Source of the DNA: Candidatus Helarchaeota ASGARD archaeon Hel_GB_B
Lineage (GTDB): Archaea > Asgardarchaeota > Lokiarchaeia > Helarchaeales > HEL-GB-B
DNA length: 15,072 nucleotides
Assembly (NCBI GenBank): GCA_005191425.1
Contig: SUPR01000083.1
Span: 1-15,072, forward strand
Reading direction: 5' to 3'
The number at the start of each line of letters is the position of its first letter. Within the stretch, counting starts at the first letter, position 1. Below are positions 3,218 through 12,732 of this stretch, piece by piece. Below the pieces are notes generated by a model. The model saw only the letters and a list, made by a program, of their open reading frames with translations, was not told the DNA's origin and made no database searches. The translations under genes were made by a program, and so were the position numbers.

Positions 3218-4159
3218 ATGGATATAAGAATTATAGAGACTTTAGCAACAATAGGGATCTTTGGATTAGGTATTTTGTTAATTTTTTTAATTTGGAATTA
3301 TTTATCATGGTATTCGTTAATAATTGTCGTCCCAATAATTATTATTTTAGAAATCTATATCTTAAACAAAATTGATGATTATCATGTCATTAAAAAGAAG
3401 ACCAAGCTAATACAATTGGGAGTTATATCTCAAGAAGAACGAGAAATCAGAAAACCAGTTATTGATGAATTTGAAAATTATAAAAGCAAAGTAAATCAGT
3501 CAATTAAGAATTTAAACAATATATTAATAGATATGGACGATGTATATAATGAGGCTCTTTTTTTAATTGAAGATGGAGAAATTTTTAATGCAAGAAAAAA
3601 GTTCAAGACAATGCTAGCAAGAGCAAATAAGGATATTGAACAAGAAGATATAAAAGTAATTTCATTAACGAATAAGGCACTTGAAACAGCGAACCCAACA
3701 TTAAATATGTCAATAAAGAATTATAAGGAACTTTGGGACAAAACAAGAATTGATATACTTAAAAAAATCAAGGATATTGCAGATAAATTTAAAATTCGGT
3801 CTGAATTAGAATCACAAATTAAAAAGATTTTTAAATTTGAGATAGATAATAACCGACCAGTTAGTGAGAATGACCTTGATACATTAGAACTTCCACTTGA
3901 CCAATATAGAAGGTTATTACGAATTATAGAAAAACCTGTGAAAATTGATATCAAAAAAATGGACCAAAACGAAAAACAACGAATGGGCGAAATCTCAAAA
4001 AAGGTAATATCAGTCTGTATGAAAAATGGAATAACTCCAAATTTGGCATATCTTTTTTATGCATTACAAATAGACTTAAAGACGTCAAAAGAAATTTTAA
4101 GTTATTTGAAAAATATTGGAATGATTGATGTAATATTTTACCACATTGTACCAAAATAA
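3218..4159 (+). CDS. Hypothetical membrane-anchored protein: two N-terminal TM helices, a helical/coiled region and a possible C-terminal winged HTH
   Basis: 313-aa ORF with ATG start and AAAGGA upstream. Hydrophobic stretches at about aa 9-29 and 31-49. No family recognised. Confidence 0.75.
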   Translation: MDIRIIETLATIGIFGLGILLIFLIWNYLSWYSLIIVVPIIIILEIYILNKIDDYHVIKKKTKLIQLGVISQEEREIRKPVIDEFENYKSKVNQSIKNLNNILIDMDDVYNEALFLIEDGEIFNARKKFKTMLARANKDIEQEDIKVISLTNKALETANPTLNMSIKNYKELWDKTRIDILKKIKDIADKFKIRSELESQIKKIFKFEIDNNRPVSENDLDTLELPLDQYRRLLRIIEKPVKIDIKKMDQNEKQRMGEISKKVISVCMKNGITPNLAYLFYALQIDLKTSKEILSYLKNIGMIDVIFYHIVPK

Positions 4160-4224
4160 TTTAATAAAATTTAAAAACGATTAATTGATTTAGATAATAA
4201 AAAATGCCGGGATAGCCAAGCGGT

Positions 4225-4251
4225 ATTAGGTATTATTATATCTAAAGTTAA
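4225..4251 (+). other. tRNA-Ser intron 1 (27 nt, position 20/21, relaxed BHB)
   Basis: 8-bp inner hairpin TTAGGTAT/ATATCTAA, bulges GT^A and AA^A, central helix AGCG/AGTT (one G-A mismatch, one G-U). Removal gives the normal D-arm GCCAAGCGGTACGGC. The spliced product cannot distinguish this from a 1-nt shift (21/22); BHB geometry favours 20/21. Confidence 0.8.
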
Positions 4252-4284
4252 ACGGCGACAGGCTCGAGACCTGTTGGTCATCTG

Positions 4285-4314
4285 TCAAAATATCATTAGA
4301 TATTATTGGATGAA
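4285..4314 (+). other. tRNA-Ser intron 2 (30 nt, inside the variable arm)
   Basis: Perfect 4-bp central helix CATC/GATG, bulges TG^T and AA^A, inner hairpin AATATC-ATTA-GATATT. Removal restores a 4-bp variable stem GGTC/GACC. Confidence 0.85.
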
Positions 4315-4351
4315 ACCTCATGAGTTCGAATCTCATTCCCGGCGTCATCCA

Positions 4352-4365
4352 TTCTTTTTATTTTT
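4352..4365 (+). terminator. Probable oligo(T) terminator of tRNA-Ser
   Basis: TTCTTTTTATTTTT starts 8 nt after the discriminator base, as is typical of archaeal terminators. Confidence 0.5.
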
Positions 4366-6541: not shown

Positions 6542-6556
6542 GTGCGGGGAGTGGGA

Positions 6557-6572
6557 TTTTCGGATTTTCTCT
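6557..6572 (-). other. tRNA-Leu intron 3 (16 nt, T-loop position 59/60)
   Basis: Central helix TTCG/CGAA (4/4 pairs), bulges AA^A and AA^T, outer helix is the T-stem. Removal gives TTCGAAT. Confidence 0.88.
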
Positions 6573-6589
6573 TTCGAACCCACGCAGGC

Positions 6590-6612
6590 TAGCGCTATGA
6601 TTTGATTCATAT
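6590..6612 (-). other. tRNA-Leu intron 2 (23 nt, variable arm)
   Basis: Central helix GCGT/GCGC, bulges AG^A and TA^G, inner helix TATGA/TCATA. Removal gives GGC-GTAG-GCC. Confidence 0.88.
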
Positions 6613-6626
6613 CTACGCCACTGGGT

Positions 6627-6660
6627 ATCTCAAACCAATTATATGCACTATAATAGGGAG
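6627..6660 (-). other. tRNA-Leu intron 1 (34 nt, canonical position 37/38)
   Basis: C32-A35 (CTCA) pairs perfectly with intron TGAG, bulges GG^C and AT^A, inner hairpin ATTATA/TATAAT. Confidence 0.92.
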
Positions 6661-6720
6661 CCTGAGCCCAGTTCCTTTGGCCAACTCGGACATCCCCGCT
6701 TTTTTTATTGCTCTTTTATG

Positions 6721-6736: not shown

Positions 6737-8524
6737 TTAGGTTCTTTTAAACTTTTTTTCAATCTCATTTTTTGAAAAAGAAATAATTGTCGGTCTTCCA
6801 TGACAACAACTAAATGGATTTTGGCAAAAACTGAGTTCTTTCACCAAATTTATCGCTCTTTCATCTGATAAAACAGTATTTGCTTTTATAGCACCTTTAC
6901 ATGACAACAAATTTACAATTTTATTTCTTAAATCTTTTAAAGATAATTTTCCTTTAATATGGATAAGTTCGTCCAATAAATCTTTAATTTCGTCCATTGT
7001 TAATATTTTTTTAAAGATGATAGGGATTCCTTTAACTATAAAAGTTGTCCCCCCAAAATGTGAGATTTCAAACCCATAATCAGATAATAATGGAATTATT
7101 TTTTTAATATCGATTAATTCACCAGGTAATAAATCGATTTTAATAGGTGAAATTAATTTTTGAGTTCTAATTGGTTTAGAGCTATTTGCTTTTAATAATT
7201 GCTCTAATCTAATTCGCTCATGAGCGGCATGCTGGTCAATTAAATAAAAGTTTTCTTCATCTGAGAAAAGTAAATATGTTTTAAATAGTTGTCCAATATA
7301 TTCCATTGGAGGTAATTTTTTTGTTTTATCGGGTTTTGATATAAGATCGGGTTTTTGCTTATAATTACCTGTTATTTTGACATTATCTACTAATAACTTT
7401 TGTTTTTTCTGGTGCTTTAAAGTTGGAATAGTATTTTTATCAGTGTGTCGAATATTCTTTTTAAATTCACTTAATTCCAACTTATTTACAGGTTCTAATT
7501 TAATTTCTCTTACTTGTTTAATATTATCAAGTACATTTTTTACTGCAATTTGAACTACATCATAAATATCATCTTCATTAATAAACCGAACTTCCTTTTT
7601 TGTGGGGTGGATATTTACATCTACAAGTTTTGGATCAATAATTATATTTAAAATGGTAATTGGATATTTATTTCGCATCAATAAAGTCCTGTAAGCGTCA
7701 AGAATTGCATTCATTATTATTGGATTTTTGATCACTCTATTATTGACAATTATTGTGATATAATATTTACTTGCCCTAATTTCTTGTAAATTAGAGGTAT
7801 ATCCGGTAATTTTAATCCAGTCATTTTGAAAATCAATTTTTAACATATTTTTTGCAACGTCAACTCCGTAGCGCCTAGCGATGTTATCTAATAGTTTACC
7901 GGTACCTGGTAAATTTAGAATTTCTCGTCCATTATGAGTTAGCTTAAATGATATTGCAGGGTTTGCAAATGCAATTAACGAGACAGTTTCAATTATGTGT
8001 CCCAATTCAGTATTAAGAGATTTCAAATATTTTTTTCGGACAGGTACATTGTAGAACAGATTTTTTACACTTATGGAAGTACCTTCAGGACATCCAATTT
8101 CAGAAATCTTTAAAATTTTTCCACCGTTGATAGTTATTAAAGTACCCGTGGTAGAATTTTTAGTCCTTGTTTTCAGCTCAATGTTGGAGACGACTGCAAT
8201 ACTGGCGAGTGCCTCTCCTCTAAAGCCAAAAGTTCTTACCATCATTAAGTCATCAAAACTTCTAATTTTACTTGTAGAGTGGCTCTCAAAAGCTAGTTGA
8301 GCATTTTTTTTACTCATACCGTGTCCATTATCAATTACAGTAATTTCTTTAAGCCCGCCATCTAAAATTATAATTTCGATTTTTGTGGCTTTTGCATCTA
8401 TCGAATTTTCTATCAATTCTTTAACCACAGAAGCGGGTCGTTCTATTACTTCACCTGCAGCTATTTGGTTTATTAATTTTTCATCTAAAATTTTAATTTC
8501 TGGCTCTAAAACAGCATCGACCAT
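6737..8524 (-). CDS. mutL: DNA mismatch repair endonuclease MutL
   Basis: QIAAGEVIERPASVVKELIENSIDA, DNGHGM, TFGFRGEALASI, VDVNIHPTKKEVRF, endonuclease motif DQHAAHERIRLE, SCK, and CCHGRP. Confidence 0.98.
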   Translation of the reverse strand: MVDAVLEPEIKILDEKLINQIAAGEVIERPASVVKELIENSIDAKATKIEIIILDGGLKEITVIDNGHGMSKKNAQLAFESHSTSKIRSFDDLMMVRTFGFRGEALASIAVVSNIELKTRTKNSTTGTLITINGGKILKISEIGCPEGTSISVKNLFYNVPVRKKYLKSLNTELGHIIETVSLIAFANPAISFKLTHNGREILNLPGTGKLLDNIARRYGVDVAKNMLKIDFQNDWIKITGYTSNLQEIRASKYYITIIVNNRVIKNPIIMNAILDAYRTLLMRNKYPITILNIIIDPKLVDVNIHPTKKEVRFINEDDIYDVVQIAVKNVLDNIKQVREIKLEPVNKLELSEFKKNIRHTDKNTIPTLKHQKKQKLLVDNVKITGNYKQKPDLISKPDKTKKLPPMEYIGQLFKTYLLFSDEENFYLIDQHAAHERIRLEQLLKANSSKPIRTQKLISPIKIDLLPGELIDIKKIIPLLSDYGFEISHFGGTTFIVKGIPIIFKKILTMDEIKDLLDELIHIKGKLSLKDLRNKIVNLLSCKGAIKANTVLSDERAINLVKELSFCQNPFSCCHGRPTIISFSKNEIEKKFKRT

Positions 8525-8530
8525 TAATAT

Positions 8531-11188
8531 CTACTCCCAGTTCTTAATCTTTTTCTGGAGTTCGAATAATTTATTTAAAGCGTTAATTGGGGACATATTA
8601 TGAATATCCAAGTTTTTTAAATCTTCAATAATTTCTTTTTCATATTTGTGATGTATTTCCTTTTTATCTTCAATTTTAGGAGTAAAGGTTAATTGGACTA
8701 TTTTTTTTCGTTTATTCTTTTTTGGGGTGAAATTGTTTTCAGTCTGAACAGTAATTTCATGCCCGCTTTCTAAGGACTCGAGTATTTCGGAAGCTCGCAT
8801 AATAACTTTATGAGGAAGTCCAGCTAACTTTGCTACTTCTATTCCGTAGGACTTATCGCAACCTCCAGGAGTAATTTGATAGAGAAAAATGATGTCGTTA
8901 TCTTTTCTCTTTACCAAAATATTATAATTTTTGATATTATCAAAATATTTAGTTAATTCATTTAATTGATGGTAATGAGTGGCGAACAATGTCCTAGCTC
9001 CAATAGTTTTTACAATATATTCTACTACTGCCCATGCAATACTCAGTCCATCAAATGTAGCGGTTCCCCTACCAATTTCATCCAGAATAATTAGACTGTT
9101 TTTTGTTGCATTATTCAAAATATTTGCGGTTTCGTTCATTTCGACTAAAAATGTCGATTGCTGTAATACTATATTGTCATATGCACCTACACGAACAAAA
9201 ATTTGGTCTACAATTCCAATTTCAGCTTTTTCAGCCGGAATAAAAGACCCCATTTGTGCCAATATAACAATTTGAGCAACTTGCCTTAAATAAGTAGATT
9301 TTCCAGCCATATTAGGGCCAGTTATAATTAATAATTGGTTCTGATTATCATCTATTAATACATCATTTGGAATGAATTTATTACCCAGTATAACATCGAG
9401 GACGGGGTGTCTACCATTTTTAATCCAAATTTTATATGAATTATTTACTTCTGGTTTAATATAATTATATAAAACTGCTACTTCAGCAAGAGAGGTATAA
9501 ATATCAATTTCGGAAATTAAATCTGAAATGGCTTGGATGGGTAGAATGTATTTTTTTATTTCCCCCAAAATCTTTAAAAATAGTTCATATTCAAGCTCAT
9601 TGACTTGTTCTTCAGCATTAAGTATTTTTTCCTCCCAAGATTTTAGTTCCTCAGTAAAAAATCGTTCTGAATTAACTAAAGTTTGTTTTTTAATATAATT
9701 TTTAGGTACCAAATGTAAATTTGGTTTGGTAACTTCTATAAAATATCCAAAAATTTTATTATATTTTACCTTGAGAGATTTTATTCCAGTCCTTATTCTT
9801 TCATTATTTTCCAATTTAATTAAAAAGTTTTTACCTTCGTCCTTTATTTTTATAAGTTCATCTAATTTACTGTTATATCCTCTCTTAATAATTCCACCAT
9901 CATGTAGGGTATTAGATGGGTCATCTTTTATAGATTTCCTGATTAATTCGGCGACCTCTAATACTTTTTCAATTAGGTCATTATTAAAAAAGTCCTTTAG
10001 TTCCTCAGTTTTTTCACTTAATATCTTATCAATTTCAGGGACTTTTTCAATTGAATTCCTTAAAGAAATTAAATCTTTGGCATTGGCAGATCCATGACTT
10101 ATTTTTCCTATAAGTCGTTCAATATCAGAGATTTCTTTTAAACACGTCCTAATATCTTGTCTTAATATTAAATCTTCTTTAAAAATTTCAATCATTAACT
10201 GTCTATATTTAATCATGTTAATATCTAGTAGAGGTTGTTTTAACCAACGTTTTAATTTTCTACTCCCCATTGGAGTTATTGTTTTATTTAAAATAGAGAG
10301 TAAAGTCCCCTCAGTAGTATCGTTCATTATGTTTCTAACTAGTTCTAAATTTCTTTGTGATGCAGCATCAATTACTAAAAAATCTTCCTGGTTATAAATA
10401 CTGAATTTCTTGATATTATTTTCTTTCAATTTTTGAATTTCTTGTAGATATAGAATAATAGCGCCAGCACTCTTGATTATTAACGGTTTATCTTCACACC
10501 CAAATCCGTGTAGGTTTAACAGACCAAAATGTTCCAAAAGAGCATTTCTTGCATTTTCTAGATCAAATATATAATCTTCTCGTGGATATATAGTCATTGA
10601 AGTATATTTTTTTAATTTATTTATTAATTCTTCATCTTTATTTATCGATTGAGGGAGGATACATTCTGTAGGATTAAAACGGACTATTTCGGATATCAAT
10701 TTTCCAATCGAGTCCTCTTCTGTATCGCCTTTTACCATTGTACCAAAAAATTCACCAGTTGAAACATCTACAAAAGCCAATCCGAACACTAATTTAGACC
10801 GTGTTATTGCTATTAGATAGTTATTCTCTTGGTCGTCTAGCATCATTAGGTCAGTTATTGTGCCAGGTGTGATCACTTTAGTGACTTCTCTTTGCACTAC
10901 TGGGCCGGATTTTTTACTTGCATCTTCTATTTGGTCACAAATAGCTACTTTGTGCCCATTATCGATCAACATTTTTATATATTTATTAACACTATGATAA
11001 GGCACACCGCTCATTGGTACCTTTAAACTCCCATAATCTTTAGCTGTCAGTACAATCTTGCAACTTTCTGCTAATATTTTTGCATCTTCGTTATAACATT
11101 CATAAAAATCGCCGACTCTAAATAATAATACTGAGTCGTTGTATTCCTTCTTAATAGCTTCATATTGTCTTAACATTGGAGTACTCAT
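8531..11188 (-). CDS. mutS: DNA mismatch repair protein MutS (MutS1)
   Basis: TPMLRQY N-terminus, mismatch-binding GDFYE, REVTKVITPGT, Walker A GPNMAGKST, Walker B ILDEIGRGT, FATHY, SYGIEVAKLAG. The start is placed at ATG 11188 (MSTPM), matching the conserved MutS N-terminus, rather than 11245 from the ORF track. Confidence 0.98.
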   Translation of the reverse strand: MSTPMLRQYEAIKKEYNDSVLLFRVGDFYECYNEDAKILAESCKIVLTAKDYGSLKVPMSGVPYHSVNKYIKMLIDNGHKVAICDQIEDASKKSGPVVQREVTKVITPGTITDLMMLDDQENNYLIAITRSKLVFGLAFVDVSTGEFFGTMVKGDTEEDSIGKLISEIVRFNPTECILPQSINKDEELINKLKKYTSMTIYPREDYIFDLENARNALLEHFGLLNLHGFGCEDKPLIIKSAGAIILYLQEIQKLKENNIKKFSIYNQEDFLVIDAASQRNLELVRNIMNDTTEGTLLSILNKTITPMGSRKLKRWLKQPLLDINMIKYRQLMIEIFKEDLILRQDIRTCLKEISDIERLIGKISHGSANAKDLISLRNSIEKVPEIDKILSEKTEELKDFFNNDLIEKVLEVAELIRKSIKDDPSNTLHDGGIIKRGYNSKLDELIKIKDEGKNFLIKLENNERIRTGIKSLKVKYNKIFGYFIEVTKPNLHLVPKNYIKKQTLVNSERFFTEELKSWEEKILNAEEQVNELEYELFLKILGEIKKYILPIQAISDLISEIDIYTSLAEVAVLYNYIKPEVNNSYKIWIKNGRHPVLDVILGNKFIPNDVLIDDNQNQLLIITGPNMAGKSTYLRQVAQIVILAQMGSFIPAEKAEIGIVDQIFVRVGAYDNIVLQQSTFLVEMNETANILNNATKNSLIILDEIGRGTATFDGLSIAWAVVEYIVKTIGARTLFATHYHQLNELTKYFDNIKNYNILVKRKDNDIIFLYQITPGGCDKSYGIEVAKLAGLPHKVIMRASEILESLESGHEITVQTENNFTPKKNKRKKIVQLTFTPKIEDKKEIHHKYEKEIIEDLKNLDIHNMSPINALNKLFELQKKIKNWE

Positions 11189-11307
11189 AAAAAGTGCACT
11201 TTCATCAAAAATTAAGAGTAAATATCTAAATATGATTTTATACAAGTGTATTAAATTATTTTCTTAAAATAAAAAAGTATAGACATTATGTCGAAAATTA
11301 AGATGTA

Positions 11308-12732
11308 TCAAGATTTAATATTTTCAACGATTTTTCTAACGATTTTTGTAGCAAGCTCTTTTAATGATAGACTTATATACCCGTTTATATAAAAGCTATC
11401 GAGTAATTCTTTATCTTCAACTCTAATTTTGCCATCAGGCATATTAACTACATCAATTTCTAAATCAACATATCGAATAGTATTTTGGTACATTTCAATA
11501 GGAGTATTTATATTATAATAAATGCCTTTTACTTCATTTTTTCTGTTAAAATATGTGGTTTTATAATAATATTCTCCTAATTTCATTTCGGTTTTTCCAT
11601 AATCTCCTTGTTCAATTGGTACTCGAAGTCCATCATAAATTTTATTTGTATTGCCCTTAAAATATCGCGTAATTGTAAAGCTATTTTCGTCTTCATTAAT
11701 TTCAGAGATTAGTCCAGGAGTTAAATGAAAAATACGTCCGTCTAACTTAACGTGGTCTATTGAAACTTTACCTTTTTTAAGTAAATTATTACTTAGGAAC
11801 TCTTCAAATACATTTTTAATGTTTTCTTTATTGTCAGCACTTCTTTTAAGTAATAATTCAGCGAAATCGACTAAATTTGAGAATTCGTTGCCCATCGATT
11901 TAATAAAATGATGTTTCGGGATTGTATCTAGAACAGTATCGCGTATTTCGTCTAATTTTTCTTTTGATGAATACGGAAATTCAATATAAAAGCCAGGTAA
12001 TCCTTTATAAAGGAGAATTTCCGCTTCATTATCTTTTTTATTTAATATATCCTCCAATATTTTATTTAATTCAATTAATTCTTCCTCTAATTCCTCTCTT
12101 TTCGCGTGTTCAGCACTTGTCCGCCACAGTATGTTCCAATTATCAGAAATTAAACTGAAATTTTTTGAAATTTCAAGTAATTCAGTCCTTTTATTAATAT
12201 CTAAGATTTTTCTTGAAATTCTTGGCATATTTGATTCGATTAAAATTATATGGTCTCCTGCTATTGTAATATTTGGTGATAATCTGGCTCTTATATAGCT
12301 AAAATTCGGGAATTTAACTGAAACTACTAAGGTATCCCCTACTTTATGTATATTATTGTCCAATACTCCTTGAAAATTTCCTTTTGGGAGATTAAACTCT
12401 AAAATAGCACTCCTTGTTTCATGATATACCTTAATCACTTTTCCTCTACAAATAGAATTCCAACCCGAATCAGATTCTCGGATGATAGAATCTTCGAATT
12501 CATTCCTTAAAATTTCTTTTACTATCTTCAGTCCTTTTTCTTTACCTAAAACGACCACTCCTTGCCGGTCATTTATATTATCAAATATCTCTATGTCCGG
12601 AACTTCATAATTTGATTCCAATTCAAAACGCGATTTTATTATATTAGTCGGATATGTTATCCGTAAATTATTTTCTAGCATTATTTTTGTTAATGCTGTG
12701 GAATATATTCCTCTAATCTTTACATTCAACAT
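11308..12732 (-). CDS. fau-1: Probable ribonuclease FAU-1 (RNase E/G-like N-terminal region plus C-terminal DUF402)
   Basis: Characteristic N-terminus VKIRGIYSTALTK, WRTSAE, and DUF402 motifs YYNINTPIE and YVDLEIDVV. Confidence 0.88.
   Translation of the reverse strand: MLNVKIRGIYSTALTKIMLENNLRITYPTNIIKSRFELESNYEVPDIEIFDNINDRQGVVVLGKEKGLKIVKEILRNEFEDSIIRESDSGWNSICRGKVIKVYHETRSAILEFNLPKGNFQGVLDNNIHKVGDTLVVSVKFPNFSYIRARLSPNITIAGDHIILIESNMPRISRKILDINKRTELLEISKNFSLISDNWNILWRTSAEHAKREELEEELIELNKILEDILNKKDNEAEILLYKGLPGFYIEFPYSSKEKLDEIRDTVLDTIPKHHFIKSMGNEFSNLVDFAELLLKRSADNKENIKNVFEEFLSNNLLKKGKVSIDHVKLDGRIFHLTPGLISEINEDENSFTITRYFKGNTNKIYDGLRVPIEQGDYGKTEMKLGEYYYKTTYFNRKNEVKGIYYNINTPIEMYQNTIRYVDLEIDVVNMPDGKIRVEDKELLDSFYINGYISLSLKELATKIVRKIVENIKS

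Follow-up and report, generated by a model that had tools for sequence, protein, structure and literature searches.

The window, meaning the whole stretch of 15,072 nucleotides of DNA analysed here, carries a tRNA-Ser(CGA) gene at positions 4206-4344 of the plus strand. In the raw sequence the locus appears as three GC-rich blocks with two AT-rich inserts between them, and reading of the sequence together with scripted cutting resolves it into three exons and two introns (Table 1). The joined exons amount to 82 nt, which ARAGORN calls as tRNA-Ser(cga). An earlier note on this DNA had proposed the same arrangement, namely two non-canonical introns of 27 and 30 nt at these positions, an intact anticodon loop, and an 82-nt type II tRNA-Ser with G73 as the product. 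Direct reading and the scripted cut agree with the proposed introns, and the structure and the call that ARAGORN returns for the spliced product agree with the rest of the proposal.

Table 1. Features of the tRNA-Ser(CGA) locus, in window positions
Feature	Position	Strand	Description
Exon 1	4206..4224	+	19 nt; acceptor 5' strand, U8 A9, D-stem 5' strand, D-loop to U20
Intron 1	4225..4251	+	27 nt; D-loop, 20/21
Exon 2	4252..4284	+	33 nt; A21, D-stem 3' strand, G26, whole anticodon arm, variable arm 5' part
Anticodon CGA	4265-4267	+	within exon 2
Intron 2	4285..4314	+	30 nt; inside 3' strand of variable-arm stem
Exon 3	4315..4344	+	30 nt; remaining variable arm, T-arm, acceptor 3' strand, discriminator G73
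Two T5 tracts	4355..4365	+	just 3' of the gene; putative archaeal-type terminator
BHB1 (relaxed HBh')	central helix 4219-4222/4246-4249; bulges 4223-4225, 4250-4252; intron hairpin 4226-4233/4238-4245		motif at intron 1
BHB2	central helix 4279-4282/4309-4312; bulges 4283-4285, 4313-4315; intron helices 4286-4288/4306-4308, 4289-4294/4299-4304		motif at intron 2

The spliced 82-mer has a perfect acceptor stem of 7 bp, a D-stem of 3 bp, an anticodon arm that reads ACAGG-CTCGAGA-CCTGT with the loop CTCGAGA uninterrupted, a variable region of 15 nt with a 4-bp stem (GGTC/GACC), and the T-loop TTCGAAT; the discriminator is G73, and the CCA end is not encoded. The serine anticodon, the long stemmed variable arm, G73, and the 3-bp D-stem identify the product as a class II tRNA-Ser, and its architecture agrees with that of Ser(GGA), Ser(UGA), and Ser(GCU) of the same genome. 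The cloverleaf is restored when the inserts are removed, as is expected of archaeal tRNA introns that depend on EndA and a bulge-helix-bulge (BHB) motif. The gene is neither split nor permuted, as its three exons follow one another in order on a single strand over 139 nt.

In its unspliced form the gene receives no call from ARAGORN and no match in Rfam at the gathering score, so the expectation that default finders would overlook it holds for both tools. A permissive Rfam scan of the unspliced gene yields only a partial tRNA match of 14.7 bits, which is meaningless. When introns in the anticodon loop are allowed, ARAGORN reports a tRNA-Asp with a 44-nt intron, which is a miscall of the unspliced serine locus and was rejected. 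Oligo-T also follows the gene on its 3' side in the same-genus ortholog described below. No promoter is claimed, because the upstream region is AT-rich throughout and its TATA-like block has no positional conservation in that ortholog. Other genes in the window include the DNA polymerase D small subunit (114-1700), neighbouring MutL and MutS genes of the bacterial type, each with its full set of domains (6737-11245, minus strand), and a FAU-1/RNase E/G-like gene (11308-12732).

Orthologous loci

A genome of the same genus (G001) carries an ortholog between the same two flanking genes, which share 63% and 75% amino-acid identity with their counterparts in the window. The two tRNA genes are 89% identical across the full 139 nt, and both introns lie at identical sites. 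Identity reaches 91% in the exons and 88% and 90% in the two introns, against 68-70%, with gaps, in the flanks; exon 1 differs by one indel in the D-loop and one substitution. Two of the changes are compensatory: an A-U pair of the anticodon stem is G-C in G001, and a C-G pair of the central helix of BHB1 is U-A. In the same helix, the GxA mismatch of the window gene becomes G-C, and the G001 helix is thus fully paired (4/4). Further changes affect one side only and keep the pairing, from G-U to G-C in the hairpin of intron 1 and from C-G to U-G in the central helix of BHB2. Across the window gene and G001, 98.9% of cells pair, compared with 35-40% when the partners are slid; because this covariation comes from two sequences, it is supportive and does not amount to statistical proof. 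With all stems intact, compensatory changes present, and conservation near 90% against that of the flanks, the gene does not look like a tRNA pseudogene.

A second ortholog is found in another family of the same order (G006, L036:1501-1624), directly downstream of a homolog of the window ORF 3218-4159. Neither its D-loop (CAGTGGTA) nor its variable region of 15 nt has an insert at the sites occupied in the window gene, and the variable region has the length of that in the spliced window gene. The inserts of this ortholog are its own, with 18 nt at about 29/30 and 24 nt at 37/38. Its spliced product of 82 nt, called Ser(cga), is colinear with the window product without gaps and identical to it at 64 of the 82 positions. 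Since G006 lacks an insert at both sites, both junctions of the window gene and its 15-nt variable region are fixed without reference to a splicing motif. In all, three genomes from two families retain the locus, and every reconstruction is a Ser(CGA) of 82-83 nt.

These orthologs bear on the notion that GC-rich fragments assemble into a cloverleaf by chance and that no gene exists. Permissive motif searches do yield artefacts of this kind, such as a four-intron 'Ser(cga)' at C107:29598-29926 that was rejected since it lies inside a 234-aa ORF. The window locus, on the other hand, is intergenic and has syntenic orthologs, its exons are colinear with those of an ortholog free of inserts at both sites, all four of its stems are perfect, and its fold z-score is -4.0; chance resemblance is effectively refuted.

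Splicing motifs and the register of intron 2

At intron 1, the exon sequence AGCG and the intron sequence AGTT form the central helix through three of four pairs (A-U, G-U, and C-G) and the GxA mismatch already mentioned. The bulges are GT↓A and AA↓A (arrows mark the junctions), the intron helix has 8 bp, and an outer exon helix is absent. The motif scoring thus reproduces the earlier description of a relaxed D-loop motif with a G-A mismatch and no flanking outer pair. At intron 2, the central helix CATC/GATG has all four pairs, the bulges are TG↓T and AA↓A, and the adjacent intron helix of 3 bp (CAA/TTG) is followed by a hairpin of 6 bp. A BHB motif is accordingly present at each intron, with four of four central pairs at intron 2 and, at intron 1, three of four here and four of four in G001. 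When the junctions were held fixed, motifs of equal quality arose in 0.2-0.9% of dinucleotide-shuffled versions of intron 1 and in 0.1-0.3% of those of intron 2. In the ViennaRNA minimum-energy fold the 5' bulge of intron 2 is paired, not bulged; this fold, the mismatch and missing outer helix of intron 1, and the second register available to intron 2 all count against the splicing scheme favoured below.

A first BHB-guided solver, run with the junctions free, returned 617 splicing solutions for this single locus. This indicates that relaxed motifs alone cannot fix the junctions, and the orthologs were relied on instead; a 2026 preprint likewise warns that relaxed motifs are permissive (Goswami et al., 2026; bioRxiv 10.64898/2026.10.13.758758).

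The same gene could be cut 1 nt further out on each side of intron 2 (4284-4315, 32 nt), for a product of 80 nt with a variable region of 13 nt. This outer register corresponds to a stricter hBHBh' fold with the central helix TCAT/ATGA and the bulges CT↓G and AA↓C, it scores 4/2/4 here for central pairs, outer helix, and intron helix against 4/0/3 for the register of Table 1, and it was the one that the automated solver placed first. In G001, however, the first intron base is changed from T to G, which disrupts the intron helix next to the bulge in the outer register, and the outer exon helix is down to 1 bp, whereas the register of Table 1 retains four of four central pairs there together with an intron helix of 9 bp. 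The variable arm argues in the same direction, as the outer register leaves a variable stem of 2 bp where the tabulated one gives GGTC/GACC, and its 13-nt variable region departs from the uninterrupted 15 nt of G006, which the tabulated register matches. The outer register is therefore regarded as improbable, and the junctions of Table 1 are retained.

Matches to the two introns elsewhere in the genome, sought as signs of paralogs or transposition, are limited to AT-rich words of at most 15 nt. Intron 2 was also considered as a C/D-box guide RNA and rejected; it contains GGAUGA, which is near to a C box, but the D box is absent, the intron is 30 nt long, and the snoRNA match has E = 1.8.

tRNA genes and splicing enzymes of the genome

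The genome comprises 3.54 Mb in 182 contigs, with a GC content of 28% and a completeness of 93.7%, and the stretch is found in metagenomes from hydrothermal vents and from marine sediment. An open frame of 609 aa contains, at G000:C103:30835-31227 (+), a domain that resembles MCR-alpha but is divergent (36 bits), and that fits an alkyl-CoM reductase of the Helarchaeales type. In view of the habitat and the MCR-like gene, the host is taken as an Asgard archaeon, probably of the Helarchaeales.

Across the whole genome, ARAGORN reports 16 tRNAs, and Rfam 15 above its cut-off. A census made with the BHB-guided solver and checked with ARAGORN is partial, in that it covers 27 loci, a few of them with doubtful intron calls, and leaves 35 further loci outside. 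Within it, 19 of about 26 plausible recovered genes are interrupted, with introns in the D-arm of 8, at 59/60 in 8, and in the variable region of 4. In this partial census, then, most genes have introns, often non-canonical, in the manner of heavily interrupted Asgard tRNA genes. Introns in the variable arm also occur in tRNA-Leu(CAG) and Leu(TAG). The former lies in the window (6543-6699, minus strand) and has introns of 34 nt at 37/38, 23 nt in the variable arm, and 16 nt at 59/60; the solver rebuilds it as an 84-nt tRNA that ARAGORN calls Leu(cag), and the exon list given for it in the earlier note is workable on the minus strand only.

The genome has one copy each of Ser(GGA), Ser(UGA), and Ser(GCU). 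For tRNA-Ser(GGA) (G000:C99:30950-31051, plus strand), ARAGORN places a 9-nt intron that results in an odd variable arm, and a 17-nt intron at 37/38, with the anticodon stem CAGGC/GCCTG, is the better reading. As to Ser(CGA), the earlier note had held that a separate intron-free gene of this specificity, with the present copy silent, would speak against its proposal. The 93.7%-complete assembly was scanned for YU-CGA-R loops closed by a 5-bp stem, both with an insert further downstream and without one, and this locus alone had a T-arm behind its CGA anticodon arm.

This result touches on the suggestion that the gene is a decaying or silent copy, in which the inserts are junk that is never removed while UCG codons are read by tRNA-Ser(UGA) through wobble. 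TCG is indeed a minor codon, with 6.6% of serine codons and 4.2 per 1000 codons overall, and the BHB1 helix is imperfect in this genome. Decay, however, sits poorly with exons and introns that are both far better conserved than their flanks, with compensatory changes in a tRNA stem as well as in a helix of a splicing motif, and with a locus kept as Ser(CGA) in all three genomes, and with the scan having found no other candidate for this isoacceptor. A silent copy is thus very unlikely.

Asgard archaea possess an (alpha-beta)2 EndA whose L1 loop is responsible for broad specificity (Kaneta et al., 2018; PMC5829648). In the present genome, two EndA paralogs are encoded, at G000:C36:44408-44659 (-) and G000:C98:28593-28853 (-). 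The C36 protein, of 192 aa, finds its best match in the catalytic alpha chains of heterotetrameric crenarchaeal enzymes (3P1Z_B, E 2.5e-42); the alignment runs without gaps through the specific loop, and the residue opposite Lys44 of A. pernix, the lysine of the CSL/L1 loop, is conserved. The C98 protein, of 198 aa, has Ala where the aligned M. kandleri enzyme has its catalytic His, and therefore fits a structural beta subunit. A gene for the RtcB ligase is present as well, at G000:C105:31216-32520 (-). It lies about 2.3 kb from tRNA-Ser(UGA) (G000:C105:28839-28938, minus strand), which carries a 15-nt intron at 37/38; this proximity is probably coincidental. The host thus appears to have an RNA ligase and an endonuclease suited to relaxed motifs, with a substrate range extrapolated from the Asgard enzymes cited above (PMC5829648).

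Judged from sequence, 4206-4344 is very probably the single functional tRNA-Ser(CGA) gene of its genome, whose two introns are removed by the standard archaeal EndA/RtcB pathway. In this scheme, transcription would give a precursor body of 139 nt, in which each AT-rich intron would fold with the adjacent exon sequence to form a BHB motif. A heterotetrameric (alpha-beta)2 EndA, with the broad-specificity L1/CSL loop on its alpha subunit, would cut each 3-nt bulge between its second and third nucleotides, and RtcB would ligate the three exons into the 82-nt class II tRNA. CCA would be added later, and the mature tRNA-Ser(CGA) would then be charged.

Possible intron turnover and comparison with other archaea

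Six tRNA-Ser(CGA) genes come from the large neighbouring family in the class, and none of them has an insert in the D-loop or variable arm; they are intronless or have a 37/38 intron only. The pattern search had a gap limit of 52 nt, which recovers the family-f4 orthologs and places the window gene, with its gap of 54 nt, outside the limit. Taken with the inserts of G006, these genes raise the possibility, put forward tentatively, that within one order the set of intron positions at a single syntenic tRNA-Ser(CGA) locus has been wholly replaced. Helarchaeales may then be a further hot-spot of recent gain and loss of BHB introns beside the published Atabeyarchaeia and Jordiarchaeia, and closely spaced gain events of this sort might serve to trace the way in which these introns arrive. 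Turnover at one syntenic locus, in an order that the published papers do not name, is the sole point here that is new, and mildly so.

For annotation, the gene provides the otherwise missing UCG decoder of the genome. It is also a clear illustration of how default finders overlook a D-loop intron, in a gene whose two junctions are both fixed, independently of the splicing motif, by an ortholog uninterrupted at these sites. It further adds one dated data point on lineage-specific intron gain in Asgard tRNA genes, as the introns occur in one genus and were not seen when the locus was compared in a sister family. It opens no new question, and is a sound but ordinary find.

Asgard tRNA genes with several introns, including D-arm and variable-arm insertions missed by annotators, are already published (Valentin-Alvarado et al., 2024; Goswami et al., 2026). 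In Atabeyarchaeia and Freyarchaeia, 92-95% of tRNA genes are interrupted, often at non-canonical positions and often more than once per gene (Valentin-Alvarado et al., 2024; PMC11291895). Insertions in the variable arm of class II tRNAs are known to exist, inserts are found at BHB boundaries, and gains are repeated and lineage-specific; about 30% of such inserts, for the most part in the D-arm, escape tRNAscan-SE (Goswami et al., 2026). The window gene resembles the genes of both studies in its several AT-rich introns of about 20-30 nt at non-canonical sites, in its BHB or relaxed BHB boundaries, in the (alpha-beta)2 EndA background, and in positions that vary between related lineages. It differs in its source, as the published focus is on Atabeyarchaeia and Jordiarchaeia/Freyarchaeia, and both main texts name neither Lokiarchaeia nor Helarchaeales, whereas the window gene comes from a vent-sediment lineage with an MCR-like gene.

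Position 20/21 is a listed non-canonical site of archaeal tRNA introns (PMC4090602). The mechanism, the motif, and the 20/21 site are shared with Thermoproteales and other Crenarchaeota, as is the handling of relaxed HBh' motifs by an (alpha-beta)2 EndA with a CSL/L1 loop (Marck and Grosjean, 2003; Sugahara, 2008; reviewed in PMC4090602). Apart from the difference in phylum, related introns of Thermoproteales turn up in different tRNAs, which suggests transposition, whereas neither intron of the window gene has a paralog in its genome. The pair found here, 20/21 and the variable-arm stem without 37/38, is a particular combination and not a new principle. Compared with the other interrupted tRNA genes of the same genome, the introns are of the same kind and equally invisible to default finders, while the gene is of a different isoacceptor and has its introns at another pair of positions; in the case of Ser(CGA), moreover, an ortholog without inserts at these sites pins both junctions.
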